Assembly: GCA_000004985.1 (NCBI GenBank)
Contig: GG738922.1
Length of the DNA stretch: 64,000 nucleotides
Source of the DNA: Naegleria gruberi
Taxonomy: Eukaryota
Reading direction: 5' to 3' (one strand)
The notes below the pieces were generated by a model. The model was not told where the DNA came from, made no database searches, and saw only the letters and a list, made by a program, of their open reading frames with translations. This document shows, piece after piece, positions 1 to 56,487 of this stretch (its first letter is position 1; each line of letters opens with the position of its first letter). The position numbers were made by a program, and so were the translations under genes.

Positions 1-346
1 TCATCTTCTTGATGCTATTACTGTTTAAAATATTGTCACGTTTTTACTTAATTATTGGCACAGTTCAACTCATTAAACGAAAATATAGAAGCATGTGAAG
101 AAACAAGGTCCCAGTACACATTACAGATTGTATTATTTGATATATCTAGAAGTTTTAACTGAAATATAGTTTCCGCAAGTAGATACATTTTTATACCAAA
201 TTTGAATTTAAATAATTTTATTTTCTTGAACCAGGTGGTAACAGGTACGAATCTTGCACAATAAATATGTTAGCTTTCCCAGACTTCTGAACTTGAGTTT
301 ATTAATAGAATTTAATAGATCACAAAAAATAATTATTATAAAAAAA

Positions 347-1090
347 ATGTCAGCAACATCTTCATCATCTGATCAACACAATGACACTTCATCATCATCT
401 GATAATAATTTAAATAATAATTTAAATATTTTAAATAATTTAAATATTAAAGAAGAATATAAATTACCTTCATTAATAGAATTTAATAATCCATTATTTA
501 AAGAAATACATTATGGACCAACAGATACATCTAATTGGTTAATACCTAATCGTATTTTAATGTCAGCCTATCCAGGTGATTTAAATTTAGAAAAATCTAA
601 AATTAAAATATCACAATTATTAAAAAGTGGAATTAATTGTTTTGTTTGTTTACAATTAAAAGAAGAATTAAATAGATTTATACCATATAAACCATTAATT
701 GAAGAATATTGTTTATTAAATAATTTAAATATTAATAATTTTACATATTTACATTTAGAAATACCTGATAATTATGTTACAAGTGATGAAAAGGTAATGA
801 ATTTTATAAATCAAGAATTATTACCACAAATTAAAAAAGAAGAAAGTAAATGTTTAATTCATTGTTGGGGTGGACATGGTAGAACAGGTACAATATCAAG
901 TATTTTACTTAGTCACTTGTATCAATTAAATTCACAACAAGCCTTGGAAAGAGTTGCTAAAGTACATTCATGTAGAATTATTAGAAAAAGTAGAGCACCT
1001 CAATCACCTTCTCAATTTAAACAAGTTAAAAGATTATCTTTTGGTTATATTAAAAATAGTGATGATGATAGTGATGATTACGATGAATAA
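347..1090 (+). CDS. Protein-tyrosine / dual-specificity phosphatase-like protein with CX5R P-loop HCWGGHGRTG; Asn-rich N-terminal region
   Basis: ORF 254..1090 begins at TTG; the first in-frame ATG is at 347 in an A-rich context (aaaaaaaATG). The catalytic-loop motif HCWGGHGRTGT is PTEN/DSP-like. Codon usage is TTA/AAT-rich. Confidence 0.7.
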   Translation: MSATSSSSDQHNDTSSSSDNNLNNNLNILNNLNIKEEYKLPSLIEFNNPLFKEIHYGPTDTSNWLIPNRILMSAYPGDLNLEKSKIKISQLLKSGINCFVCLQLKEELNRFIPYKPLIEEYCLLNNLNINNFTYLHLEIPDNYVTSDEKVMNFINQELLPQIKKEESKCLIHCWGGHGRTGTISSILLSHLYQLNSQQALERVAKVHSCRIIRKSRAPQSPSQFKQVKRLSFGYIKNSDDDSDDYDE

Positions 1091-1167
1091 ATTATTTATC
1101 AAAAAAGTAAATTAATCGGAAGAACTTATTAAATTGAATAAATTTTATTAAAATTTAAAATAAAATT

Positions 1168-2412
1168 TTATTTAAACATTAAATCAGTTTTTAAAGTATT
1201 ACTTCTTTTTAATTCAACAGCCTTTTTATAAGGTGGATTAGTAGGAGGTTGAATAACAGGAATACCCAATACTTCATTTGTTCCAATTGAATAAGTTCTA
1301 TCTGAATCAAATCCAGATAAATCACCACATGCTAAAAATGGTACTATATATCTATCTGTTCCTAACATTGGTCCTCCATTATTTTCATTATTTTCATTTA
1401 AATTATTATTATTTTCATTATTTAAATTATTTTCATTATATTGAAAATCTAAAAGTGGATCTACCATTCTAGGAATATAATTTTTAGGTAATTTAAAACC
1501 TTTACAAACAACAAAAGATTCCAATGAAGAATTTCTAGAAGATTTAGGTTTAGCACAATAAACTCTTTCAAAGAAAATAGAACATTGTGAATATAATAAT
1601 GTTATATCTTTGCCTCTAAATATTTTAGATACAAAACTACCTCCCTCTTCTAATACATGACTTGTTATATTTAATGCTGCTAATATTAATTGTAATTGTA
1701 TATATTCATCTATATCATGCATTCCCTATTATTAATTAAATATTAAATATATTATTGTAAAATATTATTAAATATTAAATATTAAATAATATTAAATTGT
1801 AAAGTATTATTAATTAAATATTAAATAATATTATTAAAAACATACAGTAACATCAGGAGCACCATCACATACAACTAATTGAGCCTTTTTACCTTTAAAA
1901 TGATGAACAATTTCCTCTGCAGTTTTTTCACTTGTAATATCTCCTTGAATTTCAATAACTCCTTCCAATGGTGCCATTTCTTGTAAATCAACACTTACTA
2001 TTATAGCATCTTCTTCTTCTATTGTTGTTGATGATGATGTTGTTGTTATTGTATTATTAGTATTATTAGATGATGAATTATCGGATATTATTGTTGTTAT
2101 TAATTTATCATCACTATCATCATTTGTATTTATATTAATTTCATCATCATCATTATTATTTAAATTAATATCATCATTGTTATTGTTATTATTTTGTTCA
2201 TCTAAATGTTTAAATTGTTTTAATAATTTACGTTGTAATACTTGTGACCATGAACCTGGTGCAGCACATAAATCGACTGCTCTCTTAACATTTTCAAATA
2301 TATTAAATTCCTCATCAACTTGTAATAATTTAAAGGCTGATCTTGCTCTCCAACCTTCTTGTTTGGCTTTTCTATAGAATATATCTCTTTTTTCTCTTGA
2401 ATTTCTACCCAT
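1168..2412 (-). CDS. tRNA/rRNA 2'-O-ribose methyltransferase (FtsJ / TRM7 / FTSJ1 family), 2 exons: join(1846..2412,1168..1725)
   Basis: Exon 1 ([36 protein letters not shown]...VCDGAPDVT) and exon 2 ([29 protein letters not shown]...) are together collinear with TRM7/FtsJ. Donor GTATGT at 1845, acceptor aatAG at 1726, 120-nt AT-rich intron. A poly-Asn/Asp insertion sits inside exon 1. Confidence 0.85.
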
Positions 2413-2891
2413 ATTTATTTATTATTATTATTATAATGATGATGATGATGTTTGTTTGAATGTAATGTTGTTATTACTATTAAATATAATACTAGGCTTG
2501 TTATTATTATGTTGATGAAAAAGGCTTGTTGTTATTGTGATGGTGATGATGAAGGTTGGTTCTCGACAAAATTTATTCCAAAAATGCAAAATTTTAATGT
2601 TTTTAAAAAAATTAGCAAAAACATTGTGAAACTAAATGAATGGAATTTAAATTGTTAATTTAAACAAATTGATATTATAATAGTAATTTGATAATGTAAT
2701 GTTAGGATGAAACTATAGTCAACAATATTTTTGACAGTAATAACATGAACAATATATTTAGCCTTCATGTACTTAAAGTTCATGAACAATTTATCCTATC
2801 AATTGAAAAAAAGGATATTAATAATTCACAACATTAAAAAATACATCATCATCATTAACCCATATATTCTCATAATAACAATCACAATAAC

Positions 2892-4541
2892 ATGATGTGC
2901 AACAATTATAATTCAACTTCATCATCATCATCTTGTAAACAAGAACTACAAGAACAAATACAAATACCCAATGATATATGTTATGAAATATTATGTTATT
3001 TAAATTCACAACAAATTATTAAAAGTTGTTTATTAATTTCCAAACAATGGTTAAATGTAATTCTTGAAAGAATTAAAAATTTACAATTTTCATTTTTTAA
3101 AAGAGATGATTCTCCATTTTGGTTTTTAAATAGACAATTATATACTTTTAAATTTAATAACTTTAATAGTTTATTATTTAATAATATATCCTCATTGACT
3201 ATATATGGTAATGAACAATATAATTTATTTTTACCATTATTAAAATATTTTAAAAATTTAAAAATATTAAATGTTAATTGTAATCAATTAAGAGATGAAG
3301 GTACTAAAATTTTAGTTAGTGAAATAGATCAATTAACATGTTTACATTTTTCAAATAATTTTATTACTATAGAAGGAATTAAATATTTAACAAGAATGAA
3401 AAATTTAACATTTTTATCATTAGCATCAAATGCAAATAATTTAACATTAGATTCATTTAAAATATTAAGTGAAAATATGTTAAATTTAAAAATATTAAAT
3501 TTATCTGATAATTATTTATGTCAAGAAGAAGTATTTTACCAAATTAGTAAAATGATAAATATTACTAATTTAGATTTAAGTAGAAATTCTATAAAAGATT
3601 GTGGTATTAAATATATAAGTGAAATGAATGAATTAATATTTTTAAATATAACTAATTGTGAAATTAAAGAAGGTTCAAAATATTTAATCAAATTAAGAAA
3701 ATTAAAAAATTTAATAATTGAACAAAATTGTATTGGAGATGACGGTATTAAATTAATTTCTAACAATTTAAAACAATTAACAAATTTAAATATATATTAT
3801 ACTAATATTACTATAAATGGTGTTAAATATATTTGTAATGAATTAAAAGAATTAAAAGAATTAGATATTAGTAATAATAAAATTGGATTTGAAAGTTTAT
3901 TAGAAATTTCAAAATTAAAAAATTTAACAAGTCTTTCAATTAATTCTATTATTAATAATAATAATAATATTTATAATAATAATAATATTGATTGTAATAA
4001 TAATATTGAAAATATTAAATATATAAGTGAAATGAAACAATTAACATATTTAGATATATCATTTAATGATATAGGTGATGATTATATTAAATTTCTAAAT
4101 AATTTAACAAATTTAACACATCTCTCTATAGCACGTAATAATTTAACACATGAAGGTGTGAAATTTTTAAGTGAAAATATTTTTAAAAATTTAACACATC
4201 TCTCAATTGGATATAATTTAATTGGTATTGAAGGTGTTAAATTAATTACTAATAGTAGTATTGAAAATATGAAATGTTTATATATTAGTAAATCAGGAAT
4301 TGATGATGAAGGTGCTAAATATATTAGTAAATTAACAAATTTAAATAGACTTTTAATTGATGGTAATTATATTACTGAAATTGGTGCTAAATATATTGGT
4401 CAATTGAGTGAATTAACACATCTTAATATTAGTGAAAATTTTATTAAAAATGAAGGAGTTTCTTATTTGAGTAATCTTTGTAAATTAAATACTATTGATA
4501 TTAGAAGAAATGGATTGAGAAAGGAGAAGAAGAATAAATAA
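2892..4541 (+). CDS. F-box-like / leucine-rich-repeat protein (RNI-type LRRs), 549 aa
   Basis: N-terminus IPNDICYEILCYLNSQQIIKSCLLISKQWLNVIL is F-box-like. It is followed by more than 15 LRRs with L..L.L..N.I.D.G motifs typical of ribonuclease-inhibitor-like repeats. ATG at 2892. Confidence 0.8.
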   Translation: MMCNNYNSTSSSSSCKQELQEQIQIPNDICYEILCYLNSQQIIKSCLLISKQWLNVILERIKNLQFSFFKRDDSPFWFLNRQLYTFKFNNFNSLLFNNISSLTIYGNEQYNLFLPLLKYFKNLKILNVNCNQLRDEGTKILVSEIDQLTCLHFSNNFITIEGIKYLTRMKNLTFLSLASNANNLTLDSFKILSENMLNLKILNLSDNYLCQEEVFYQISKMINITNLDLSRNSIKDCGIKYISEMNELIFLNITNCEIKEGSKYLIKLRKLKNLIIEQNCIGDDGIKLISNNLKQLTNLNIYYTNITINGVKYICNELKELKELDISNNKIGFESLLEISKLKNLTSLSINSIINNNNNIYNNNNIDCNNNIENIKYISEMKQLTYLDISFNDIGDDYIKFLNNLTNLTHLSIARNNLTHEGVKFLSENIFKNLTHLSIGYNLIGIEGVKLITNSSIENMKCLYISKSGIDDEGAKYISKLTNLNRLLIDGNYITEIGAKYIGQLSELTHLNISENFIKNEGVSYLSNLCKLNTIDIRRNGLRKEKKNK

Positions 4542-4748
4542 ATAAAATCTTTAGAAAAACCTTAATATTTGTTTAATTGACTCTTATAACCTTAATGTTT
4601 TATAATCTTTGCAAATGAAATTTAAATAATAATAATAAAATTATTGTTTTTTGAAGTATCAAACATTCAATAATTGAAAATGATGAACCTAACCACTAAT
4701 AACAATTAATAATCTGTTAATTCATGTGTGTGAATAAACTAAAAAAAA

Positions 4749-6062
4749 ATGAAAGAAATTCCCTTCACATCTATTGAAGGTATAATAGTAGGACATTGTA
4801 ATGAAGGTAATAGTGGATGTACAGTTGTGTTGAGTGAAAACTCCGAAGGATTTGGATGTGGTGTTGATTGTAGAGGAGGTGCAACTGGTACAAGAGAAAC
4901 TGATTTATTAAAACCTGGAATGTTAGTTGAAAAAATACATGGTGTATGTTTTATGTATATATTTTCTTAATATATTTAATATTTAATTAATATATTTAAT
5001 TTATTAAAAAAGTGTGTAATTTCAGGAGGAAGTGCATTTGGATTAGATGCATCTTCAGGAGTAATGAAATATTTTAGAGAAAAAGGAATTGGATATCATA
5101 CAGATATATTAAATGTTCCAATTGTTTGTCAAGCTGTTTTATATGATTTACAAATGTTAAATAAGAAAGATAATACATCATTATCATTATCATCCAATGA
5201 TAATAATAATAATAATACATCATCAACATCTAATAATCAAAATAATTCAATAATTGATTTACCAAATTATTTTGAATTAGGATATAAAGCATGTAAAAAT
5301 CCAATATCTAATGATATAAATGGAAATATAGGAGCAGGAAATGGATCTACAATTGGTAAATTATTAGGAGCTAAACATTCAATGAAAGGTGGATTAGGAT
5401 GTTATGCAATTCAAGTTGATAATGAATTAAAAATTGGTGCAATGGTTGCTGTTAATTGTTTTGGTGATGTTTATGAAAATGGAAATTTAATTGCTGGATG
5501 TTATAAAATTAATGATGTTGATTCAACATCTGATTCAACAACAACTAATACATCATTATTATCTGATTCAACTATTAGTACAAATAATACTGATGATACA
5601 TCATTTAATTCTAATAATTTTAATAATTCTTCAAATGATAAATTAGTTGAATTTCTTGATAGTGAAAAGATATTAATTAAAGAATATTTACAATCTAAAG
5701 AAGAAGCCAATGCATTTGAATTATCTAAAAGAAAGCATGATATAACAAATACAACTATTGGTATTGTTGTTTGTAATGGAATATTAGATAAATCTCAATT
5801 GAATAGAATTGCAATGATGGCGCATGATGGATATGCACGTTCAATGAAACCATCTCATACTTTATATGATGGTGATACTATTTTTGTAATCTCAACTGGT
5901 ACTATTAATGTTAAACCTCCTACTAATTTAATTGGTACTTTGGCTGCACAAGTTGTTGAAAAGGCAGTTGTTAATGGTGTTAAACATGCTCAATCCATGA
6001 ATGATTTCATTTCTTTTAATGATTTAAATAATATTATTTCTACTAATAATAGTAATAAATAA
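4749..6062 (+). CDS. Peptidase S58 / DmpA (L-aminopeptidase D-Ala-esterase/amidase) family protein, 2 exons: join(4749..4941,5026..6062)
   Basis: Exon 1 IEGIIVGHCNEGNSGCTVVLSE...GVDCRGGATGTRETDLLKPGMLVEKIH plus exon 2 GGSAFGLDASSGVMKYFREKGIGYHTDILNVPIVCQAVLYDL matches the DmpA/S58 consensus. Donor GTGTATGT, acceptor tttcAG, 84-nt intron in phase 1. Asn/Ser/Thr-rich insertions present. Confidence 0.8.
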
Positions 6063-6100
6063 TAAACTCTTAGTTGTTAATAATTTGATTCAATGATTTT

Positions 6101-7147
6101 TTAATCTATTTCAATGATGGTTATATTGTTAAGATGATTATTAGTAGTGTTGTTAATGTTCATCTTTTTAGTAATGTTAGTGTTGATAGTAGTGGTATTG
6201 AGTAGATTAAGAGTGTTATGTTTCAATATAGTTGGTAATGCTACAAGCTCATTGTCATGATGTTGTAATGTGGATTGATTGAGTTTAGAATGAATTGGTT
6301 CTTCCTCAATAACATAATAAGGAATTTCATCTTTGACTATTAGAGGTGTTGGTGATGTATGAGTCATTTCTTCACTGTTAATGTTAGTTGTATCAAAATC
6401 TTCATTATCTTCATCATCTGATTCCGATTGACCAATTAAAAGAAATAATGAATGTGTTGATGGCTTTTCAGATTGTGATATCACAATATTATTAGTAGTA
6501 TCACCATTATTGATAATGACATTAGTAGTGTTAGTAGTATTATTTGTGTTTTGTGAATAATCCAAACTATCTTCACTAGTTGATTCCTGAGTTGTATCAT
6601 TACTCTCTGTAAAGAGTGCACTCAATATTGATGAGGAAAATGATGGTACAATATCACCATCACAACCTAACAAGCCTAATGGTGGTGGAAGTGGTGATGA
6701 AGGTGGTGGTGCTTTCTCTTCTTCTTGACTTGAACCACTAATTAATGCATTATGTGGTGGTAGTGGTGTAGTTATGAATGATTTGGAAGGCTTTAATTTG
6801 TGATGTAAAGTACTATTATTCTTTCGTTTCTTTCTTGGTATTTCAATTAATTCTTCTTCATCATCAGTTTCATAATCCTTATAATTGATTCTTCTTAATC
6901 CCTTTCGTTTCGGATGTTTTCTATTGGATTCGGATTCTAATTCTTCATCTTCTTCCTCATTGGATGAATATTCTTCATCATCATAATCTGAAGAACTACT
7001 ACTATCATCATCAGAAGTGGTGTCAAAATCGTCTTGTCTTATTTGTGGTAATGTATCTTTCCTAACCCAATGATCAGAGCCTTCATTTGATGTTACTACT
7101 GCTACCTTTTTACTTGTTGTCTGACTTCTGGTTACTCTTTGAGACAT
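6101..7147 (-). CDS. Hypothetical acidic Ser/Asp/Glu-rich low-complexity protein, 348 aa
   Basis: Long ORF with ATG at 7147 and Dictyostelium-like codon usage. It has poly-acidic and poly-Ser tracts with basic KR patches suggestive of nuclear localisation. No recognisable domain. Confidence 0.6.
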   Translation of the reverse strand: MSQRVTRSQTTSKKVAVVTSNEGSDHWVRKDTLPQIRQDDFDTTSDDDSSSSSDYDDEEYSSNEEEDEELESESNRKHPKRKGLRRINYKDYETDDEEELIEIPRKKRKNNSTLHHKLKPSKSFITTPLPPHNALISGSSQEEEKAPPPSSPLPPPLGLLGCDGDIVPSFSSSILSALFTESNDTTQESTSEDSLDYSQNTNNTTNTTNVIINNGDTTNNIVISQSEKPSTHSLFLLIGQSESDDEDNEDFDTTNINSEEMTHTSPTPLIVKDEIPYYVIEEEPIHSKLNQSTLQHHDNELVALPTILKHNTLNLLNTTTINTNITKKMNINNTTNNHLNNITIIEID

Positions 7148-7308
7148 TTTATTTGTTAAGGTTTATTGTAGGTAATAAAATACACAGACTTTGTTAGCCT
7201 GTGACTAATTGTAGCCTTGTAAAATCACAGCCTTGATTGAAGGATGAATGTTCTTGTGAATGATGGAAATTATTGCAATCAGTGCCATCCATCAATTCTA
7301 AAAAAAAA

Positions 7309-10300
7309 ATGAGTATTAATAATAGTATTGTTACTACACCCACTAAATCATCAGCATCATCACCAACTGATGGTACATCATTAACACCATCTCCATCATC
7401 ATTATCAACACCTCGGAATAATGTTAGTAGTAGTAGTATTACAACACCATCATCTACAACATCATCAACTTTATCAACTCCATCCACTCCATCTTCATCT
7501 TCTAGAATGACAACAATAGTTTCATCAGCTCCTATTATTAAAAAACTACCAAAACATTTACAAGATACCTTAAAATCTGGAACTAATATATCATCACTCT
7601 CTGATTGTATTAAAGAATTAATAGAAAATGCACTTGATGCACAAGCCACTAATATTGAAATTCAATTACAGGGTAAAGAATGTATCATTATTAAAGATAA
7701 TGGTCATGGTATTCATCAGGATAATTTTGAAACTCTATGTAAACGTTATTATACTCATAAATTTATGAATCATTTTAATACTTTTAATGATAATGATAAA
7801 AATGTAAATAATACCACTGATAATTTAAATAATAATGAATCATCATCTAATAATCATTCTCATAATAATAATGAAAATAATAATTATTACTATGGATATA
7901 AAGGAGAAGCATTAAATAGTATATGTAATTTAAGTAAACAAGTACATATTAAAACTAAATATGGAGATGAATCTGAATTAGGAACATATTTAATATATGA
8001 TACAAGAGGTGAAATTGTATCTAAAACATTAATTAGAATGAATAGAGGTACAATAATAACAATTCAAGATTTATTTTCAACCATTCCAGTTAGAAAGAAA
8101 TGTTTTGTTAATCAATTTGATTCACAATTTACAGATTTAAAAGAAATGTTAAAACAATTAACTTTAATACATTTTAATATTAGATTTACTATTAAGGAAG
8201 GTGAAAAAATATCATTTATTAAAAATGGAAATATTAAAAATTTAAAACAATCATTAAATACTATATTTGGAATACCTAATTTATATGATCATTTATATTT
8301 ATATTCAAATATAATATTAAATGAAGAAAATGAAAATAATATATTTTTAAATAATTTAAATTTATTTAATAATGAATTTTTATTACAAATTCATGTTCCA
8401 AATTATTCAAGTATTGTAAAATCAAATCAAATTGATTCAAATGAAAAGGAAATTAACAAATTTTTTACCACAACTAAACCTTTTATTTATGTTAATAATA
8501 GAATGATTACTAAATATGAAGAAATTCAAAAAACAATGAAAAATATTTTTTCAAATTTTNNNNNNNNNNNNNNNNNNNNNNNNNNNNNNNNNNNNNNNNN
8601 NNNNNNNNNNNNNNNNNNNNNNNNNNNNNNNNNNNNNNNNNNNNNNNNNNNNNNNNNNNNNNNNNNNNNNNNNNNNNNNNNNNNNNNNNNNNNNNNNNNN
8701 NNNNNNNNNNNNNNNNNNNNNNNNNNNNNNNNNNNNNNNNNNNNNNNNNNNNNNNNNNNNNNNNNNNNNNNNNNNNNNNNNNNNNNNNNNNNNNNNNNNN
8801 NNNNNNNNNNNNNNNNNNNNNNNNNNNNNNNNNNNNNNNNNNNNNNNNNNNNNNNNNNNNNNNNNNNNNNNNNNTAATGATTATTCTGATCAAGTTATTG
8901 ATAATCAATTAAATAATACAAGTTTAATTTCTAATAATAATAATACAAGTAAATTAATTTCTAATAATACAAGTTTAATTTCTAATAATAGTAGTAGTAG
9001 TATTATTACACAATCATCACCTTCTTCTTCTATTATGAATAATAGCAATAATAATAATGAAAGTGGTAATCATTATACATCTAATTATAGAACACCATCA
9101 CCTCAATCTAAAAGCCTTATTACCACTCTTCATAATAGTAATCATTCTAATAATACAACAACACCATCACCACCTATATTTAATAAGAGAAGTGTTATTG
9201 TAAATAATAGTGGTGGTAGTAGTGGAAGTGGTAGTGGTGGTTATAGATCTACTATTAGTGGAGGTAGTAATAGTACATCTAATTATAGTACTAATAATAA
9301 TAATAATAATAGTAGTAGAGGTAGACATATAGAATTAGATGATTCATTATTGGATGCTATGGATGATTTAATAGGTGTACCTATTTTACCAAAAAATAAT
9401 AATAATAATTCAACAATAGATTCATCTATTAATAATAATATTACTAATAATAATGGAAATAAATCTAATAATAATAATATGAATTTAAGTGATGATGAAG
9501 ATACAATAATTAAAACAGGTTTAAAAAATACATCTAACAAACAAATATTAATAACTAATAATAATAATAGCAATGATAATAATAGTACTATTAAAACAAT
9601 AGTACAACCCATTGATATAAATAAATATAAAAGTACAACACCTAATAATTCTAAAAAAAGAAAAACAATTCAAACTAAATTAACATTAGATTCATCTCAA
9701 CAACAACAACAACAATATAAATATAAAAATATAGAAATTGAAAATATTAATGAAGAATTAATATTTAAAAAACGTAAAATTTATTCAAATAATGAAAAGA
9801 AAAATTTAAAATTTGATAATGAAAATTATAAAATTAGTAAAAATGATATATTTACAAATATAGAAATTATAGGAGAATTAGAAAATAAAATAGGAATAAT
9901 ATATCATTTAAAATATTTTAAAATATATTATATTAATTTAAATATAATTAAAAGTGATTGTATTTTTAATAATTTAATGAATACATATTCATTTAAAGAT
10001 TCAATTATACCTTTACAACAACCAATTAATTTATTATTATGTAAAAATGAATTATCAAATAAGAATTTAAAATCAATTTGTGTTAAACCTGAATATCAAA
10101 ATATTTTTGAAATGAATGGTTTTAAAATTGAATTTGAAAAACAACCTTTACCAAATGAACCTACTAGAAAGAAAATTACAAAATTAAATTTAATTGGAAT
10201 TATTAATAATAATTCTTTTGGAACAAGAGAACATTATAATTATGGTTTACAAGATTTTATTGAAATTTTACAAAAAATTGAAACTTTTGAAAAGGATTTA

Positions 10301-10663
10301 TTAGAAAATGAAATTATTAAGAATATTTTAAAGGAAAAGAAGGCAACTAAATCTGAATTAATTTCGCAAGCATCAATTCAATTTAGACCCAATACAATGA
10401 TTGAATATTTTAAGAATACTGCTAAACATACTTCTTCATCTTTAGGTACAGATAGAAAATCAATTCATGAAATTTTAATGGACTTGAAAACAACTTGCTT
10501 CTTGAAATTACATCAATTTATGAGTAGACATACAGATGAAAATTTTGATGAAATTATTAATGATATTACTGGTTATTTTCATCCAATGGATTTGGGAGGT
10601 ACTAGTAGTGATACTAGTGCTGATAATAATGGAGATGTACCAAATATTGAAGAAATGATTTAA
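7309..10663 (+). CDS. MutL-family DNA mismatch repair protein (MLH/PMS-like), interrupted by scaffold gap
   Basis: The N-terminal GHKL ATPase motifs IKELIENALDAQATNIEIQL and IIKDNGHGI match MutL. ORF 7273..8877 starts at TTG; the first in-frame ATG is at 7309. The reading frame stays open on both sides of the N-run and continues to 10663. Extensive Asn-rich insertions. Confidence 0.75.
8570..8874. other. Assembly gap (305 N)
   Basis: Run of N characters inside the MutL-like CDS. Confidence 0.99.
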
Positions 10664-13600
10664 TCTTTAATAAATTGAATAGTCTTTTGCTTTGGAACTT
10701 GTGGTGATGGATTACTTGGTCTGAGTACTGGTAATGGATTGAATTTGATAATTTCCTGTGATGAAGAGCTTATCGATGAGGAAGGAGCTGAAAATTTGAG
10801 AATTGATTTTCTTATCATGTTCGTATTATTGGATTGTGCAGCTATTGTTGTTGATTGAGATGGAGAGAATAATTTTGGATTAAAATCATCTGCAATTAAA
10901 TCCTTTCTTGTTGATTCATTCATATCAGCCCATTTCAATGAATTATTCTGATTATCTCTTTTCAATAATTTTAATTTGGAATTATAACTTGGTGAACTAA
11001 CTTCTGTTGGGAATTCAAAATCGTCAAATTTACGTTTTCCTAATTGATTTAATTGATTCATTAATGTATTATTTCTAGTTGTTGGTGTATTAATTAATGA
11101 TTGATTTGAAATTGAACTAATATTTGACTTGGTTGGTGTTATAGAACTTTCACTTATTGAACTCAATGAATTTAATAATGGAACAGGTGAAATAAAAGAT
11201 GAATCTAAATTTGATGATGTTTTCATTGGTGTTTGTTCTCTCTTTGAAATTCTACTCTTAGGTGAAAGTAATAAAGATGAGGATGATAAATCATTTGATT
11301 GTTTTTGTGTTCTAGTTGTTGTTGAACTATTAATCATCATTCTATTTGAAACTAATTTAGAAATACTTGGTGATAAAATAAAACTATCTTCCTTTCTAGT
11401 ATTACGAGTATTAAATGATGGTTTTGAAAGAGGTGATGGTGAAAACATTGAAAATAAACCCAATTCTTTTGTTGATGGAATTGTTTTAGGTGTTCCAATT
11501 AAATCTAATTTTGAAATATCAAATTCAGAATTTCTTCTAGTAATTACTTTTGGTGAATTAGTACTACTAATATCATTCATATTATTATTATTTGTAATAA
11601 TAGTATTATTATTATCAATAGTTGATTTCTTTTGAATCCAATCATTTTGAATTTGTTCAATTGCTAAATCTTGTTGATTTAAAATTTCAATTTGATTCTT
11701 AATTTCATCATCTGTAATTTTATCATCAATATCAAGTAAAATCTTTTGAGTTTCCTCTTTTTGTTTTTTAATTAAAGGTTCAAAATCTAAAACTCTACAT
11801 GTAGAAGTATCAAATAAATCTTTTTCATCCACTTGTTCATCATCTTGTACATCTTCCACTTGTTTTAATTCTTCATTGAAATATTTTAATAAATTATTAT
11901 TACTTTCAAACTCATTTGATGATGCTATATTACTAATACTACTAATATCTGTTAATATATTATTATTATTATTATCAATATTATTATTATTAGCAGTATT
12001 ATTATTAGAATTATTATTAGTATTATTCAAATCATTCTTATGATTCATACTATTATCAATATTTACAACCATTGATGACTCTATAATACTATCATCACCC
12101 AATTCTTCTAATACATCTTCTGTTGTTGTTGTAATTGCTTGTGCTACTTCGCCTGTACTAATATCATCAATTACATCAAGAATATTATCCTCCTCTTCTT
12201 CTTCTTTCTCTGATTGTTTCGTTTGACTATTATCACTTAAAGATGATGAATCTGATAATGGTGATTCAGATATGTTTGCTTCAATATCTTCATTTGTTGC
12301 ACTTGTTATTTCCTTAATGATTTCATCAATTTCATCTGTTTGATCATTCTCTTCTTCAGAGAATTCTTCAATAATCTTTGGTTCTTGTTCTTCAATAATA
12401 TTTTCAAGTTCATTGTCTTCCTCTGAAGATTCCTCAATAACCTTTGGTTCCTGTTCTACAATGATATCATCATCACTTTCTTGTTGTTCCGATTTAGATT
12501 CAACAATTTGTTCAGTAGTTGTCTCTGGAGTTTCATCTTCACTATCAACCATTTCAGGAGTTTCATCAGTTTCATTTTCAATAACAACTTGCTCTTCTGC
12601 TACTTGTTCTTCATTATCAACAACTTGCCCTTCAACTACTTGTTCTTCAGTTGTAGAGTGAGCTATTACTTCTTCTTCTACTACGACCGATGGAGGCGAT
12701 AATATTGGAATTTCTTTATCCACTTCATTATTATTATCATTAACAATATTAGATGATGATTCAATTGATTCTTCGTCTTTTTCAATTGTTGTTGTTGTAG
12801 GTGATGTTACAGTAGTATTAATATTACTATCAATATTAATAATTTTACTTTCTTTAGCAAATTCTTCTTCTATTGTTGGTATTGTTGATTCACTTTCATA
12901 TTCTTCTCTGTTTCTCTTTAATGAATTTTCAGATTCAATAATGGTAGTATTATTATTATTATTAGATTCATTATCATCATCAAATTTAATTTCATTCAAT
13001 TCATCTTCATTTTTCACTATATCAATATTATTATTTACTACTACTTGTTCATTCAACTCCTCTATAATCACATGATCAGTATTTTCTACTTGTTCTTCTT
13101 GTTTCTGAATTAATTCTTGTTTTAATAAATTTAAATTTAATTTATAATCCTTTTCAATTAAATATTTTCTCATCATTGATTGTAAAGTTAAAATTGTATT
13201 TAAATCATTTTTTAAATTTACTTGTTCCATTTTACTTTTTAATAAAGATTGAATTATTAAAGTTGATTCTTTACAATCATTTAAATATTTTCTATTCGAA
13301 TGTCCTTCAATTAAATTTTCTAAATTATTTAATAATTTTAATTTTTCATTCTTTTCTAAATTAGTAAATAATCTAATATGATGTCCATTAAATATTGATT
13401 GTAATGTTGTTATACTTTCATTTAATTGTTTTCTGTTATGTAAAACTAATTGATTTCTATATAAGGATTGAATATTTTCTGAAAATTCTAATTTTGAATT
13501 AAATTCCTTTTTAATTAAATAATTTCTAATTAATGATTGTAAAATAATAATATTATTATTAATATTATTAAAATTAGTATTTTCTATTAAATTTCTAAAT

Positions 13601-14558
13601 TTAGATTGTAATATTATTACATTGAATTTTTCATCGTCTAAATTTTTACGTTCCAAATAATTTTTACATAAATTTTGTAATGAAATTAAATGTTCAACTT
13701 GTTTATCCATTTCATGAATTGAATTATATTGTCTAATTATAGATTGAATACTTGTTATATTAATTTCCTTAGAATTTTCCAAACTTGTTGATTCCGATAC
13801 TGATTCTACCATATTACTAGCATTATTATTTATAGTAGTTTCAATTGTAGTTGGTGTTGATGATATTTCTGTTGTATTAATTAATTCTTCATCATTTGAA
13901 GGCTTTGAATTTTCATTTTCAATTTTTTCTTCCGAATTTTCATTACTTGAATCATTAATTAATTGTTCATCGCTTGAAGGCTTTGAAATTTCCTTATTTT
14001 CTTCTTGATTAGATGATTCCTGTTGTTGATTATTTTCATCTTGTTCTTGCTTAGACGATGATTCATCTTGTTGTTTGTTGATGGTTCTAATTCTGTTTGT
14101 TCTTCATGTTCAGAACTATTTTCATCTTCCTGTTTAGATGAAGAAGAGGAAGCCTTTGGTTGTTCTACTTTTTTTCTTCTCCTTGATGATTGAAGCCTAG
14201 ATCTAACAGGTGTTTTAATAATCTTTTCTTCTTCCTCTGGTTCGGTATTTGCAGTCAAGTCTTCATTTACACTTTTAGATTGATTATTCTTCGTTTTATC
14301 AATTTTCTTACGTTTTTGACGTTCCTTTACTGGTGTTTTTAAAATGTTTGAAATTAATGATGAGGCTGATGATAATGTATTAGAAGAGGAGGCATTTGTT
14401 GTTGTACTATTAGATGTTTCATCATTGGTTGTTGATGTGGTTGAGGAAGAAGAAGTAGCATTTGCCTCGGTATTTGCTGTTGTTGTATTTGATGACCTTG
14501 TATCATCGGAAGGTGATGAAGGAGATAATAATTTTTGTCTTCTAGTTTGTACTGGCAT
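10660..14558 (-). CDS. IQ-motif-containing, acidic low-complexity protein; two ORFs (14558..13959 and 13812..10660) probably one gene disrupted by a frameshift
   Basis: ORF 10660..13812 carries at least five IQ-like calmodulin-binding motifs (ILQSKFRNLIE, LQSLIRNYLIKKEF, LQSMMRKYLIEKDY) followed by long acidic/Ser-rich tracts. The frame that contains Met-13812 stays open upstream to about 14100 with the same acidic repeat style (SKPSSDEQLINDSSNENSEEKIENE...). It overlaps the 3' out-of-frame tail of ORF 13959..14558. Confidence 0.5.
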
Positions 14559-14689
14559 TTTTTTTTAAAGTTTCAATTTAGTGATGTAATACTGATTGTT
14601 TCGAAATGGTAAATAATACTATTTACCAAAGAACTACATTTGTCGTGCACGATTAATAAAACAAATAAATCTCAAGTTCTAAACCAGTA

Positions 14690-14880
14690 TGAGTTTAAAT
14701 TCTATTTTTTGGGACAAAAGCGAGGGAAATACTGTGGCCCACCGGCCTATTGGCGTGATAACACTGCCGTTTGTTGCCGGTTCGAACCGAAGCTACTGCA
14801 TGCGTTTGTTAATACATGCACCCAGAAATTGGGCGAAGTAGAGAGTATGCAGTAGATGGAAGTCGGTCACAGGTTTCTCT
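14690..14880. ncRNA. GC-rich structured island, candidate small ncRNA or Pol III element (identity unknown)
   Basis: Local GC is far above its surroundings. There is a nested inverted repeat CTACTGCATGCG...GTATGCAGTAG enclosing CCCAgaaatTGGG, plus palindromes GGCCcaccGGCC and CGGTTCGAACCG (B-box-like GGTTCGAAcC), with a T-run at 14866-14876. The only overlapping ORF is short and atypical. Confidence 0.25.
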
Positions 14881-14930
14881 TTTAAACATACAACCAATTA
14901 AAATTTTAATGTTTGTAATTTCTATCAGAC

Positions 14931-14943
14931 ATAAAAAAGTAGA
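14931..14943 (-). terminator. Pol III oligo-T terminator downstream of the tRNA
   Basis: TTTTTT run 1-8 nt after the discriminator base on the tRNA strand. Confidence 0.5.
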
Positions 14944-15032
14944 AGGCGACTGAGGGAATTGAACCCTCGACCCTCAGTTATCTCAGCATTACTGCCTACA
15001 AGACTGATGCACTGCCACTGTGCTAAGCCGCC
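14944..15032 (-). tRNA. tRNA gene, anticodon UGU (Thr) with a putative 17-nt intron 3' of position 37
   Basis: The reverse complement folds as GGCGGCU/AGUCGCC acceptor stem (one G-U), GCAC/GUGC D-stem, UCAGU/ACUGA anticodon stem with loop CUUGUA[intron GGCAGUAAUGCUGAGAU]A, variable loop GGGUC, and T-arm GAGGG-UUCAAUU-CCCUC. A T6 run (TCTACTTTTTTAT) follows immediately and serves as a Pol III terminator. Confidence 0.6.
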
Positions 15033-15154
15033 TTACGATTATGATTTTTAAAAATACAATACTGTAATATTCCTGTGCGTTAAGTAATGTGTCACCAAAA
15101 TAATAACACAATTAATATTAATATTATTATGGCGCCAAAAAGAAATAAAAATAC

Positions 15155-15358
15155 ATGACTGCAAGAATTGATGAAACAACAAATAGGTTGGCTGCTACTC
15201 TTGATCATGTTCAATTTAATAATCATCTCAATAATGATATATTCCGATTAATTATTTCCTTTCTAGACATTAAGGATTTATGTCGATTCGAACAAGTAAG
15301 CAAGAATAACCTTCCAATTTGTAAAGTGTGCTCAGAAGATTCTGACTTTTGGAATTAA
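15155..15358 (+). CDS. Small F-box-domain ORF (67 aa)
   Basis: DIFRLIISFLDIKDLCRFEQVSKNNLPICKVCSEDSDFW is a complete F-box-like motif. ATG at 15155, TAA at 15356. The ORF lies 5 nt upstream of the GTPase ATG. Confidence 0.5.
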   Translation: MTARIDETTNRLAATLDHVQFNNHLNNDIFRLIISFLDIKDLCRFEQVSKNNLPICKVCSEDSDFWN

Positions 15359-15363
15359 ATACA

Positions 15364-16246
15364 ATGGTTTCGAAATCTTACAATTATAAAATTACTGAAA
15401 CAGATCGTCAACAAATTGGAATGCTCTTGAAGAAAACTGAAGATTTTAAGAAAACATTGAATCTCGCCTTTAAAATTGTAAATGACATTATTGAACGTAA
15501 TTTCAGACAGAGAATGGAAGAATTGGAAGACAGTATACTAAAATATAACAAAAAAGCTGCAAAGAATCAATTCATGACTAGGGATGAATTACTTAGTGTG
15601 GATATTTCAAATTGTGAAATACCGTTAGATGAAAAGCCTTTCAAAATTATTGTAATGGGTTAGTTTGTAAAATTTAACAATTAATGATTAATTTTCAATA
15701 GGGGATGGAAATACTGGAAAAACATGTTTATTGGAACCTTTATTGAAGGGTCAATTCATACAAGATTATGCACCTACTCTTTTCAAAAAAGAGTTTGCTG
15801 ATTTTAATTGTGGAAATTTTCAAGTTACTTATACTGATATTGTAACAGACATTGATTTCCCAAATAATAGATCTCAATTCTATCCAAATACTAAGGCATT
15901 CATTGCAATGTTTAATGTAATGGAAGATTACACGCTCAGTAATTTATTCACACGATGGATTCCAGAAGCAAGACAATATTGTCCAGAAGCAGCAATTATT
16001 GTTGTTGCTTCCAAAGTTGATTTAAGACATGATTTGAGTGCAGTGGAGACATTGAGGAAAAACCATTTGGAAAAACCAATTTCATTCGATCAGGGAGAAA
16101 GAGCATCTACAATTGCCAACTGTTCGACCTATATTGAAACAAGTTCCCTGCAAAACATTGGATTAGGTGATTTGACAGAGTTGGCACTAAAGGCCTATTT
16201 TGTAAATATTTCAAAGGAAAGAAAGAAAAATTGTTTTTTACAATGA
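15364..16246 (+). CDS. Atypical Rho-family small GTPase with N-terminal extension and C-terminal CAAX-like CFLQ; join(15364..15658,15702..16246)
   Basis: Exon 1 ends ...KIIVMG. Donor GTTAGT, acceptor caatAG, 43-nt intron in phase 1. Exon 2 starts GDGNTGKTCLLEPL (P-loop). The Rho-like regions TRWIPEARQYCPEAAIIVVASKVDLRHD and PISFDQGERAS are present. The DTAGQE switch-II motif is replaced by TDIVTDIDF. Confidence 0.7.
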
Positions 16247-19949: not shown

Positions 19950-20649
19950 ATGTCCATTATTAGAGCAAAGACACCCATCTCATACACACAATCCTATGGA
20001 GATAAGGAATATTGGGATCAACGTTATTCCAAGTGAGTACACTATTCAATTAATTGAATTTGGAAATATATTAAGGTGAAAAAGACAATCGGAACCATTT
20101 GAGTGGTATTTTAATTTTAAGGCTTTGAAACCATTCATTCTCAAATACTTTAAGGAGATGGACTCTCATACTTTATATGTTGGAGGAGGAACATCACAAG
20201 TTCCTTTCAAACTCTATGAAGAAGGATATAAACGTGTGACAACAATTGATTATAGTGAGGGAGCAATGGAATCAATGAGGAGAAAGAATACAAATCCCGA
20301 TTTGGAGTTTTTAACAATGGATGCAAAACATACCAATTTTCCTTCATGGTATTTTGATTATATTGTTGATAAGGCTTGTTTTGAATCGGAATTTTGTGCT
20401 GATTGGACTCATGGAGCAAAAACCTACTTGGATGAAATCAATAGAATTCTAAAACCTGGTGGAATGTACATGATGATTTCACACTTTTCTCCAGATAAAC
20501 GATTACCCTTACTTGAAGTGGACTATTTGCAATGGACAGTACTTGTGGAAAGACAAAACAAACCAAATTTCAGTACAATACCAAACGATGAGAATGACAG
20601 TTTCTATTATTTGTACGTTTGTAAAAAGGCAGACGTAAATAAACGGTAA
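19950..20649 (+). CDS. Class I SAM-dependent methyltransferase, EEF1A-KMT4 / ECE2-like; join(19950..20032,20085..20649)
   Basis: Exon 1 is MSIIRAKTPISYTQSYGDKEYWDQRYS. Donor GTGAGT, acceptor aaaaAG, 52-nt intron in phase 2. Exon 2 is KQSEPFEWYFNFKALKPFILKY...LYVGGGTSQVPFKL...ILKPGGMYMMISH, carrying the methyltransferase motifs. Confidence 0.75.
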
Positions 20650-20710
20650 TCTTTCATGAACTAATCTCAACCATTGTGAAATATTTAAAAATGAAAATTA
20701 AATGATTTAT

Positions 20711-22287
20711 TTAATATCTGTAGTGATCAGCCTTGTATGGACCATTTTGAGAAACACCAATGTAATCAGCTTGGGAGTCAGTCAACTTAGTCAATCTAGC
20801 ACCGAGCTTTTCCAAATGGAGTCTAGCAACTTCTTCGTCCAAAACCTTTGGCAAAGTGTAAACACCAACAGCATAAGTATCCTTCCACAAGGAGATTTGA
20901 GCCAAAGTTTGATTAGTGAATGAAGCAGACATGACGAAAGCTGGGTGACCAGTAGCACAACCCAAATTGACCAATCTACCTTGAGCCAACAAGAGGATGG
21001 TGTGACCATCAGGGAAGACGAATTGATCGACTTGAGGCTTAATGTTAATTTCCTTAACACCTTCACAGGTCTTCAAACCGAGGACATCGATTTCATTGTC
21101 AAAGTGACCAATGTTACAGATGATAGCAGTATCCTTCATCTTCTTCATGTGATCAAGAGTAATGATATCCTTGTTACCAGTAGCAGTGACGTAGACATCA
21201 GCAGTTTCCAAACAATCTTCAATAGTCTTGACAGTGTAACCAGCCATACAAGCTTGGAGAGCATTGATTGGATCAATTTCAGTAACAATAACTCTAGCAC
21301 CTTGACCCTTCAAAGCTTCAGCACATCCCTTACCGACATCACCAAAACCACAGACAACACATTCCTTACCAGCCAACATGACATCAGTAGCTCTGTTCAA
21401 ACCATCCAACAAGGAGTGTCTACAACCATAAATGTTATCGAACTTGCTCTTAGTGACAGAGTCGTTAACGTTAATAGCAGGGAACAACAAAGTACCTTGC
21501 TTTTGCATAGCATACAATCTGTGAACACCAGTAGTAGTTTCTTCAGAAACACCCTTAATGTGTGGAACAATAGCATGGAAGAAACCTGGTTCTTCCTTCA
21601 AAATTCTCTTCAACAAATCATTGACAATTCTCAATTCTTCAACACCACCATCACTTTCCAAAATGCTGGCATCCTTTTCGGCTTGATAACCTCTATGGAC
21701 CAACAAAGTCATATCACCACCATCATCAACAATCAATTGTGGACCCATGTTTGGACCGAACTTGAGAGCCTTCCAAGTACATTCCCAATATTCAACCAAA
21801 GTTTCACCCTTCCAAGCGAAAACTGGGATGTTAGCAGCAGCAATAGCAGCAGCAGCATCATCTTGAGTTGAGTAAATGTTGCAAGAACACCATCTAATGT
21901 TACCACCAACAGTCTTCAAAGTTTCAATGAGGACAGCAGTTTCAACAGTCATGTGGAGAGAACCAGAGATTCTGACATTGTTGAGTGGCTTTTCTTCACC
22001 GTATTTAGCTCTACAAGCCATAAGACCTGGCATTTCCTATATATTAAAATAATGATAATTGATTGTGTGGTGATTATTATGAATATCCATCGGCAAGGGA
22101 AGTTGATGGAAATTGAGCATGATCAAATATTGGATCAGTAGAAATAACAAAATTGTTAGAAATCATTAAAATTATTCTCTATAAAACAAACCTTTTCGGC
22201 CATTTCAATTCTCTTACGACCCAAGGAAGCTTGGCTGATATCCTTGACTTCATAATCAGTAGCAGTAACAGTGACGGTTTGGCTCAT
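20711..22287 (-). CDS. S-adenosyl-L-homocysteine hydrolase (adenosylhomocysteinase), long form; join(22192..22287,20711..22036)
   Basis: Exon 1 is [32 protein letters not shown]. Donor GTTTGT, 155-nt intron, acceptor tatatAG. Exon 2 is [18 protein letters not shown]...[10 protein letters not shown], a near-complete match to SAHH including the NAD-binding motif [10 protein letters not shown]. Strong translational codon bias (TTG, AAG, GGT, GCT, AGA). Confidence 0.95.
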
Positions 22288-22740
22288 CTTGTTGTGGAGT
22301 GTTGTTTTTTTTCAAAAGACAAATTTTTGTTGAGCGTCATGCTGGGCGATTTAAGTCGTTGGCGAGTGTAGACTTGAAAGATTCAATAAGCCACAGCACA
22401 ACAATCGCACAAGCTTCAACGCTGCACAATCCCGAACAAGATTTTCTTCACCGTTGAAGACGCAGAAAAGATTCTTCAAGCTTGTGCACGCCAAAAACTC
22501 GCTGGGACAAGTCTAGAGAAAATTGTAAAAAATTGAGAATGCATCGTTTTAGGGAGGGATCCTTCGCGTTTTCAAGTTTTGCTAGGTGTGGTCAAGCCAA
22601 GATTTGCCAAGCGCCTGTGTGCTTTTGATTGGACAAAAATGAAGTGATGATGCTGGCAATTTGGATTTTACAATGACAAGTTTTATGGTGTGGTAAACAT
22701 GTTCTGCGAATTATTGTGTGGATTGGTTCGGAATGTTGGT

Positions 22741-23137
22741 TTTTGGAAGTATAATAGTATACACATGTTTGAGTAGACGAGGTTTTATATTCGAATCCTT
22801 ACCTTATGGGTATGGCTATTGTGTGGAGTAGTATTCATTGGTAGATTATCGATTAAATGGAGTTGACTGTAATTCTTCTCAATGACCTTTAGGGAAATTG
22901 GAGTAATTGAAAAAATCTAACTACAGTTTTCTCAAAACGAAACCAACAAGAATGATCACAACCTCTTCGGATGAAGATCTTGCTTCAACTTTCTGTAGTG
23001 CTTCCATTACAATTTCACGAATCTTTCGTGTTGTTGAATATTCAAATCAAGAAGGAGAATATTTGGTATTCTTTCTTCAATGAACCAAATTGAATAATTC
23101 GTTTATTATGAAGTATAATAGTATATACATGTTTGAG
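22741..23137. repeat. Pair of about 29-bp direct repeats (AAGTATAATAGTATAyACATGTTTGAG) about 365 bp apart in a large GC-richer intergenic spacer
   Basis: 22741-22770 and 23108-23137 share 27 of 29 nt. They flank a non-coding stretch containing tATTCGAATCC (B-box-like). Confidence 0.5.
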
Positions 23138-23416
23138 GATTACTTCAAAAGGTTGCTTTTCTAGTTGATACCGTTAAATTGTTTTTTTGGAGAGCTAACT
23201 TATTGGGTTGGATTATCAGGTTTAATCTTATTGGAGAAACACATGTACAGTGAGAGAAATCATTTAATATTAAATTTAATTTTTAAAAAAATGTCTATTT
23301 TCTCAAGGGACCTTGAATTATTTTCAAGTTATGCAATAATATCATTCCGATGATTATTTTGCTTGAAGACAAATATTCTTGTTTTCTAGAACAAAGTGCT
23401 ATTTTTGTTTTCATAA

Positions 23417-42109: not shown

Positions 42110-42286
42110 CTTTTCAAAAATTGTTGTAAAGTTTTCAATATAATTAATATCATGTATTGGTGAAATACGAATTGCTTTGAGTTGTTTCAATGCAACACTG
42201 AGTTTGTATCATAAAATTAATAGCCAATGAAAAGACCTGAATAGTGGAATAAAGAGAGATGGCTGTCACTCATCAAATTTTAAAAA

Positions 42287-55525: not shown

Positions 55526-56487
55526 GGAGCATGTCTATTGTTTTATTTTTTTGTGAAGTTTTTTGCTTCATCTTCAATTTTAGGATTTGCTTTTTGGAGA
55601 GTTGTTTGATGATTCCAAACAAAAATCACTAGTAATAGTAAATAGATGATGTTGTGAAAAGTTTGGTAGCTTCAGTATGTTAAATAATTGAAACCACTCG
55701 AAGAACTCGAAGAATCATTAAAGTACATCCGTACTTGATGTTGAAATGTTTTTTTCATTTTCTTCTTTATTCCATTAGACCTTTTACAATCACAACCTTA
55801 CCTGTCAAATCTGATGATTTCAGTAACTCTTCATTGAAATTAGACCTTTAAAATACATTCTAGCAAACTTAATGCCAACACTTTCATTTATGAATTTGGC
55901 TTGTTCTATAGAGTCATTAATGGATTTTCAAAATCTAGTCTGCTTCGTTTGATCATTTTTTTGACAGTTTTCTTCGTCATACAATTATTAAGAAATAATC
56001 AAAGTGGTTGCCCTTCTTATAGTTTCCTGTGATTTCTCGCTCTGTTAAATAATAAAAACCACTTTTGAAAAACTCTCAAATTGACTAACACACATTTCCT
56101 CTCAATGCTAAATGCACAACAATAACAGAGGTTAACTAAAAAACACAGAAAATAAGGAAAAAAAAGACTACAGCACCACAGGTTCCCAAGTTGTCTCCAA
56201 CCTCAGTACTGATGTGGCTCGACGATGCTTAACTTCTCAAATCGGACGGGATGAGGTGCATTCATCGTGATATGGCCGTAGCCATTTATTTCCTTAATGC
56301 GATGAATAAAAAGAAGTTTGTGACACAAAACAAGAAAACATGAACTTATCAAGCTTGTTACAGCTACACAATACTCTCGGTTTGTCAAATTCTTCAAAAA
56401 CTGGCTTGTCCTGAGCTGAATTGCAAAGATTGGGAGCAGTAAATTGAAAAATTAATTTGGTGTTTGGTTGAAGAGGAATGAAATAAT

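Follow-up and report, generated by a model that had tools for sequence, protein, structure and literature searches.

The isochore-like chromosomes of Plasmodium vivax, a subject of Carlton et al. in 2008, reportedly have GC-richer cores that switch abruptly to AT-rich ends. In Ostreococcus, Bathycoccus and Micromonas, a low-GC region resides on a "big outlier chromosome", and suppressed recombination has been proposed as its cause. AT-isochores generated by repeat-induced point mutation (RIP) are known from Leptosphaeria maculans and other fungi; among yeasts, the left arm of Lachancea kluyveri chromosome C is deviant, and domains differing in GC content at third codon positions (GC3) have been linked to recombination and GC-biased gene conversion. 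For Vermamoeba vermiformis, a regional mutational bias has been inferred, with GC3 running from 0.23 to 0.80, and for Naegleria clarki and Willaertia magna only a low overall GC3 has been reported (PMC11702301). Here we describe a compositional boundary in a 64,000-nucleotide stretch of Naegleria gruberi contig GG738922.1 (GenBank assembly GCA_000004985.1), referred to below as the window, where an AT-rich block on the left meets DNA of normal composition on the right close to position 14,000. With a probability of roughly three in four, the block is an isochore-like AT-rich domain, native and gene-dense, which is at least 13.6 kb long and was made by regional AT-biased substitution, and the discontinuity is its right-hand edge.

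AT-rich domains in N. gruberi were not found described in a literature search, and each of the systems above resembles this locus in part. As in P. vivax, sharp intrachromosomal GC switches between native gene-bearing domains are found in a protist and are visible at synonymous sites, but the AT-rich parts there are subtelomeric and carry variant gene families, whereas the N. gruberi block carries housekeeping genes (TRM7 and a MutL-family gene). The outlier chromosome likewise presents a native low-GC block with different codon usage in an otherwise homogeneous genome; it extends over hundreds of kilobases with distinctive introns and many transposons, in contrast to the approximately 14 kb visible here, with GT-AG introns and no transposons seen. 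RIP isochores share the AT-rich blocks with sharp edges beside GC-equilibrated DNA. A RIP-type origin was rejected, as the RIP indices were negative (TpA/ApT 0.80 and (CpA+TpG)/(ApC+GpT) 1.45 in the block, compared to 0.59-0.67 and 1.54-1.58 on the right side) and the block is densely packed with genes, keeps its conserved open reading frames (ORFs) intact and has no transposon-type repeats. L. kluyveri and other yeasts offer a regional GC3 difference between neighbouring native genes, ascribed to recombination history or introgression, although the L. kluyveri arm is GC-rich and 1 Mb long and the present block is AT-extreme. Vermamoeba is also a free-living amoeba with wide within-genome GC3 variation ascribed to regional mutation bias, but it belongs to a different supergroup, and no mapped domain boundaries are described there. 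Unlike classical vertebrate isochores, the part of the domain visible here is far shorter (about 13.6 kb).

A likelihood scan of GC content placed one dominant change point at 13,960-13,975 (gain of 243 nats), separating 23.3% GC for positions 1-13,975 from 32.9% for positions 13,976-64,000, and recursive binary segmentation of the 64 kb returned no further one. Published summaries give 33-35% GC for the N. gruberi genome as a whole. A Jensen-Shannon scan of tetranucleotide usage reached its maximum at 14,000, and 1-kb windows ranged from 14.9 to 29.5% GC on the left and from 27.6 to 41.1% on the right. GC3 was 5.4-18.4% (mean 8.3%) in the nine left ORFs and 18.4-36.8% (mean 26.7%) in the 26 right ORFs, with no left ORF exceeding any right ORF (Mann-Whitney U = 0, p = 1.1e-5). 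Codon usage differed between the sides with a summed chi-square of 870 on 41 degrees of freedom; TTA made up 81% of leucine codons on the left vs 28% on the right, AAA 82% vs 52% of lysine codons and AAT 96% vs 78% of asparagine codons. The encoded proteins were shifted as well, with asparagine accounting for 13.2% of residues on the left and 6.8% on the right, the FYMINK amino acids for 38% vs 33% and the GARP amino acids for 10.6% vs 15.7%. Tandem repeats were concentrated in the left 14 kb (27 of the 36 rows from Tandem Repeats Finder). The block is a segment of fairly homogeneous composition with a sharp edge, distinct from its flank, and the shift is present both at neutral or weakly constrained sites of native genes and in amino-acid content.

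An earlier note, made by a model from the letters of the window, had claimed a discontinuity of composition and codon usage with TTA, AAA and AAT preferred on the left and TTG, AGA, GGT and AAG used by highly expressed genes on the right, and had proposed GC, GC3 and tetranucleotide profiles as a check. All three profiles show the shift, and both codon preferences were confirmed, the second by the S-adenosylhomocysteine hydrolase (SAHH) gene, in which TTG was used 31 times out of 42, AGA 14 out of 14, GGT 38 out of 39 and AAG 28 out of 29. The 35-40% GC given for right-hand coding DNA proved too narrow (29-41.5% was measured), and the right genes described as mostly single-exon also contain introns, one in SAHH and one of 43 nt in a Rho-like GTPase gene. 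The note had further placed the switch at 14,560-15,100, coinciding with a GC-rich island and a tRNA gene; a shift nearby and both elements were found, but its centre at about 14.0 kb lies some 0.6 kb to the left of that interval and to the left of the two elements. The boundary is a ramp of approximately 1-1.5 kb and not a step, and it falls within the 5' part of a minus-strand gene for an IQ-motif protein that runs across the transition. Between 13.5 and 15.7 kb, GC3 went from 0.05-0.10 through 0.13-0.16 to 0.19-0.26; along the IQ gene it rose toward the 5' end from 0.05 through 0.08 and 0.13 to 0.16-0.30, with 0.19-0.26 in the next gene.

The direction of the shift can be read from the TRM7/FtsJ gene near the left end of the block, which corresponds to N. 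gruberi EFC37069.1/XP_002669813.1, recorded on a 209,908-bp public N. gruberi scaffold. When substitutions were polarised with two other Naegleria sequences, 42 of 56 ancestral G/C third positions had changed to A/T, compared to 2 of 139 A/T positions that had changed to G/C, and first positions showed 15 GC-to-AT changes vs 1 in the opposite direction. Third bases are now A in 49%, T in 42%, G in 6% and C in 2% of codons. At codons for the same residue, GC3 was 8.4% in N. gruberi vs 31.8% in N. lovaniensis, and TRM7 lies 24-32 points under its orthologues; on the right side, SAHH lies 8 points lower than in another Naegleria (36.7% vs 44.6%). The TRM7 intron occupies the same codon boundary in N. 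lovaniensis (...GAT GTT ACT/GTATGT...TAATAG/GGA ATG CAT), with a GC content of 5% in N. gruberi and 31.5% in N. lovaniensis, whose TRM7 locus has 33-41% GC. N. gruberi-specific replacements in the protein were mostly toward AT-rich codons (G41N, G271N, A235S, V239I and R173K), and loops that are Glu/Asp-rich in relatives are Asn-rich in the N. gruberi block proteins. These comparisons show that the shift is real, region-specific, lineage-specific and directed from GC to AT in native genes. Among the origins that had been proposed in the earlier note, a genuine isochore-like segment is the one that the change at synonymous, intronic and unconstrained protein positions, specific to this region, bears out.

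The same note had also raised a chimeric scaffold that joins two genomes. A Dictyostelium-like or other AT-rich contaminant fused to Naegleria would account for the 23% GC of the block, its poly-Asn tracts, its Dictyostelium-like codon usage and a 4-mer correlation with the right side of only 0.72. The genes themselves point elsewhere. Over 219 gap-free columns, TRM7 was 92.2% identical to N. fowleri, 91.8% to N. lovaniensis, 91.3% to another Naegleria transcript, 87.2% to Willaertia, 73.1% to Acrasis and 69.9% to Acanthamoeba, and in addition to the common intron site it carries a C-terminal extension of Naegleria type. SAHH, recorded on the same 209,908-bp scaffold, was 92% identical to N. 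fowleri, 83% to Willaertia magna and 75% to Acrasis kona, so that both genes descend the same ladder from Naegleria to Willaertia to Acrasis. The taxonomic affinity is the same on both sides of the boundary, with TRM7, the MutL-family gene and SAHH each nearest to Naegleria and then to Willaertia, and UniProt accessions follow the order of the window, from D2W1D6 (TRM7) through D2W1D9 (a MutL-family fragment) to D2W1E4 (SAHH), those of TRM7 and SAHH being close neighbours. The window is accordingly part of a single scaffold in the public NEG-M assembly of N. gruberi. Only one N. gruberi TRM7 was present among the matches listed in the homologue search, which argues against a contaminant, since a contaminant would leave the host copy as well. 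Separate homology searches of the two halves, suggested as a test for two genomes, thereby returned one species and one scaffold, and a chimera of two organisms is left with a vanishingly small chance.

The MutL-family gene provides the physical link between the AT-rich DNA and the boundary. The window has one assembly gap, a run of Ns at 8560-8874, which falls inside this gene; there are no Ns from 8875 to 64,000, and the reading frame to the right of the gap is open from 8876. Orthology was established by exhaustive HMMER search and pairwise BLASTP. To the left of the gap, ORF 7273-8559 aligns to residues 6-380 of Willaertia KAL9646695.1 (E 8e-86) and to residues 61-415 of N. fowleri XP_044568544.1 (E 3e-102); to the right, ORF 8876-10660 matches that W. 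magna protein over residues 702-1072 (E 2e-58) and ORF 9035-10660 matches that N. fowleri protein over residues 523-1015. Only 7 matches to ORF 9035-10660 were found in 1.84 billion representatives, the full-length ones being the N. fowleri protein (1017 aa, annotated as "DNA mismatch repair protein S5 domain-containing protein") and the Willaertia protein (1078 aa), and the sole N. gruberi match was a 419-aa partial model, EFC37031.1 (D2W1D9), on the same 209,908-bp scaffold. Sequence searches of Pfam (MutL_C) and PDB detected no MutL C-terminal domain in this ORF. Because the halves to the left and right of the gap match the same two proteins, the homology indicates that one MutL-family gene spans the gap and validates the scaffold join across 8560-8874. 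Its C-terminal half lies within 8875-64,000, and AT-rich Naegleria coding DNA with close relatives only in N. fowleri and Willaertia therefore shares a gap-free contig with the boundary and the right side, contrary to what a chimera would predict.

A foreign insertion, whether horizontally acquired DNA, an endogenous giant virus, a fragment of mitochondrial DNA (22% GC) or the rDNA plasmid of ~14 kb, would fit the size (about 14 kb) and GC content (23%) of the block, and AT-rich mimivirids are among the viruses that Naegleria hosts. Giant viruses of Naegleria have been reported (PMC11702301), and some genes in the block are of kinds found in such viruses, namely an FtsJ-type methyltransferase, a dual-specificity phosphatase (DSP) and F-box/LRR proteins. 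The block is, however, almost wholly composed of intact ORFs and holds at least eight nuclear genes, including those named by Pfam (a DSP-type phosphatase, TRM7/FtsJ, an F-box/LRR protein and an S58 peptidase) as well as an acidic protein, the MutL-family protein and the IQ-motif protein. These are cellular orthologues with conserved spliceosomal introns, and the introns on the left (120 nt in TRM7 and 70 nt in the S58 peptidase gene) are ordinary GT-AG introns. Pfam and Rfam searches of the block found no viral hallmark, rRNA or mitochondrial gene, and its Pfam content is cellular; a mitochondrial or rDNA-plasmid origin was rejected for its lack of rRNA and organellar genes. TRM7 and the MutL-family gene track the species tree, and the latter, of heterolobosean type, lies on the gap-free contig of the boundary. 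The foreign segment that had been offered as a further possibility is accordingly very hard to credit, and on the sequence evidence the reading of two genomes or of foreign DNA is refuted.

Several observations weigh against a native domain shaped by regional substitution. GC-normalised 4-mer usage of the left block correlated with that of the right side at only r = 0.71-0.72, compared to r = 0.93-0.94 among thirds of the right side, and the dinucleotide delta* was 88-123 between the sides vs 22-64 within the right side; judged on k-mers alone, the left block looks like another genome. The IQ-motif gene has a one-base frame break near 14,070-14,076, about 100 bp from the change point, and the reconstructed 1301-aa IQ protein had no match in a database of 5.8 billion proteins, N. 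gruberi models included. Two JGI metagenome scans, one with a 22-mer from the GC-rich island and one with the Rho-like GTPase protein as query, gave no match. Around TRM7, gene order is not conserved with N. lovaniensis, TRM7 alone being common to the two, so this comparison neither dates the block nor validates the junction by synteny. The window starts inside the block or at its edge, which makes the 13.6 kb a lower bound. Lastly, the regional substitution bias is a cause that we infer, with low recombination as its most plausible form.

The difference in whole k-mer signature, which goes beyond GC, and the sharp boundary are both features that an introgressed or hybrid segment from a more AT-rich Naegleria lineage would show, as in the case of the L. 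kluyveri chromosome C left arm. Willaertia, the sister genus, is itself AT-rich (12-31% GC at its TRM7 locus), and the reported heterozygosity and recombination of N. gruberi (PMC9928731) count in favour of such an event. On the other hand, TRM7 is 92% identical to other Naegleria, as expected for N. gruberi and the same as for SAHH, no donor-like sequence was found, and the GC3 of the block (8%) is far under that of any Naegleria sequence retrieved. We regard introgression as distinctly improbable. In favour of a native block, the dinucleotide pattern is qualitatively common to both sides, with CpG and TpA depleted and CpA/TpG enriched. The observed/expected ratio of CpG was 0.23 on the left and 0.32-0.48 on the right, the depletion being deeper in the AT-rich block; cytosine methylation is reported in Naegleria, and the CpG depletion on both sides fits with it.

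The frame break raises the question of whether two N. gruberi loci, one of them from an AT-rich domain elsewhere in the genome, were mistakenly fused at about 14.0-14.1 kb when the Sanger assembly was built. It lies close to the change point, a draft scaffold gap is 5.5 kb away, and the IQ gene has no orthologue to prove that it is a single gene; the break itself could come from a sequencing error or be a genuine frameshift. Within this gene, a repeat unit (TCnTCTAAnCAnGAA..GATGAAAAT) coding for SSKQE(Q)DEN is found on both sides of the break (~14,073), and GC3 climbs as a ramp over approximately 1 kb with no step. The boundary lies 5 kb from the only N run, in gap-free sequence (8875-64,000). 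The repeat unit on both sides and the gradual rise in GC3 argue for a junction that is one continuous locus. A mis-assembly within the genome is consequently improbable, and even if it had occurred, the AT-rich block would remain native to N. gruberi and call for the same explanation.

Expression offers a different account, in which the right side is rich in highly expressed genes with optimal codons and the contrast reflects translational selection. SAHH and a CCT chaperonin on the right are in fact strongly biased to optimal codons. Right genes without sign of high expression nevertheless have a GC3 of 0.2-0.33, from which it follows that translational selection is not the explanation, and all nine left ORFs lie at or below every right ORF, non-housekeeping genes included. 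In addition, introns and amino-acid composition are shifted as well, and the shift runs unbroken along the chromosome, with one change point only. The likelihood of this account is minimal.

The weakly constrained sites of the domain have been driven almost entirely to A/T, while purifying selection has conserved the catalytic cores of the proteins. Synonymous positions stand at about 8% GC and introns at about 5% GC, AT micro- and minisatellites have expanded in the domain, and unconstrained protein loops have turned rich in Asn, Ile and Lys through AAT tracts. The favoured cause would be a heavy mutational bias from GC to AT that GC-biased gene conversion, with recombination low in this region, fails to counterbalance; alternatively, the mutational environment could be peculiar to the domain, for instance through its chromatin state or replication timing. 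As Willaertia is AT-rich overall, extreme AT bias is within the mutational repertoire of the clade. A more specific proposal, that the block is a recombination-cold or heterochromatin-like domain (centromere-proximal or mating-type-like, for example) in which unopposed GC-to-AT mutation has nearly emptied synonymous sites of G/C, with its edge set by RNA polymerase III (Pol III) elements as a chromatin boundary, is unlikely. If true, it would provide the first compositional-domain boundary to be mapped in a heterolobosean, as well as a handle on Naegleria sexual recombination; sex in Naegleria has, to our knowledge, been inferred and never seen.

The candidate Pol III elements reside in the intergenic stretch 14,559-15,363, inside or beside which the domain edge falls and which holds a tRNA-Thr gene and a GC-rich structured element in converging orientation. 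The tRNA-Thr gene, the only tRNA gene in the 64 kb, has a canonical 17-nt intron after position 37 and is followed by a run of six Ts. The island (46.8% GC for 14,700-14,885) is predicted to fold on the plus strand with -64.1 kcal/mol (z = -3.6, none of 200 shuffles folding as well; minus strand z = -1.5), its 5' and 3' ends pairing with each other, and it is single-copy within the window. It contains motifs resembling the A-box and B-box of tRNA genes, TGGCCCACCGG at 14,737-14,747 and GGTTCGAACCG at 14,781-14,791. ARAGORN made tRNA-like calls on the island only at very relaxed thresholds, where they are unreliable, and Rfam searches of 14,400-15,200 matched only the tRNA, with no family for the island at gathering thresholds and none credible at E <= 10. 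Judging from its fold and motifs, the island may encode a small Pol III RNA of Naegleria that has yet to be described. The presence of the tRNA-Thr gene and the island at the domain edge is suggestive but post hoc, and that they act as a boundary is speculation. By chance, a single tRNA gene would fall within 1 kb of the only change point in 64 kb with a probability of about 3%, an estimate that is likewise post hoc.

Since k-mer signatures differ between the sides, screens based on sequence composition would call this native block foreign, which calls for caution in decontamination and in claims of horizontal transfer in Naegleria, where GC and k-mer screens would wrongly flag it. The near-complete loss of G/C at synonymous sites of conserved genes beside normal DNA is a clean natural example of regional substitution bias reshaping proteins, seen here as poly-Asn inserts and as replacements of Gly by Asn, Ala by Ser and Val by Ile. 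If such blocks were widespread and tracked recombination, they could serve as an indirect map of recombination or chromatin domains. The value is practical at present, for decontamination and annotation, and would be larger if a genome-wide scan linked the blocks to recombination or chromatin domains.

The block appears to be under-annotated, with no model for the IQ gene, which seems to be unannotated, a partial model for the MutL-family gene and a TRM7 model that loses an Asn-rich segment. In this public TRM7 model (303 aa), an in-frame Asn-rich stretch of ~70 aa is treated as an intron and removed. As N. fowleri, N. lovaniensis and Willaertia TRM7 retain a homologous Glu/Asp-rich insert at that segment, the model is probably in error at this point. 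At the far left, window positions 1-350 have 27-29% GC, near the level of right-side non-coding DNA (30.6%), so that the left edge of the block may lie here and the block may form a self-contained island of ~13.6 kb, the sequence there being short. The coordinates of the features are collected in Table 1.

Table 1. Features on either side of the compositional boundary, in window coordinates
Feature	Position	Strand	Basis or remark
AT-rich compositional domain	350-13975		GC 23.2%; mean ORF GC3 8.3%; TTA 81% of Leu; Asn 13%
TRM7/FtsJ tRNA 2'-O-methyltransferase gene	1168-2412	-	Exons 2412-1846 and 1725-1168; intron 1845-1726
MutL-family (GHKL ATPase + S5 domain) gene	7273-10663	+	Split by N run 8560-8874
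IQ-motif low-complexity protein gene, ~1300 aa	10660-14558	-	Pfam IQ match; two overlapping frames
Transition zone between two compositional regimes	13500-15100		Change point; 4-mer Jensen-Shannon maximum; GC3 gradient
GC-rich structured island, candidate small non-coding RNA	14722-14880	+	Fold; promoter-like motifs; TTTT end
tRNA-Thr(UGU) gene	14942-15033	-	ARAGORN; Rfam tRNA (RF00005) 58.5 bits vs threshold 29
Domain of normal N. gruberi composition	15101-64000		GC 32.9%; no further change point
Ras/Rho-family GTPase gene, first with normal composition	15364-16246	+	Pfam Ras 3.3e-18
S-adenosylhomocysteine hydrolase (SAHH) main exon	20711-22033	-	100% identical to EFC37073.1/XP_002669817.1

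On the right side, the intron of the Rho-like GTPase gene has the splice sites GTTAGT...AATAG, and the GC3 of this gene is 0.19-0.26. An uninterrupted ORF of 2446 codons extends over 42284-49621 on the plus strand. A dispersed 5S rRNA gene (56165-56283, minus strand; Rfam 105 bits) has protein-coding surroundings with no compositional change around it. In metagenome data, a contig of ERZ929261 (ENA) was 98% identical over 3 kb to the SAHH region at 20290-23284, which indicates a close relative of strain NEG-M in that sample. Finally, a metagenome contig of ERZ27315067, from a different Naegleria, carries a methyltransferase gene near SAHH, with a TPR-repeat gene between the two.

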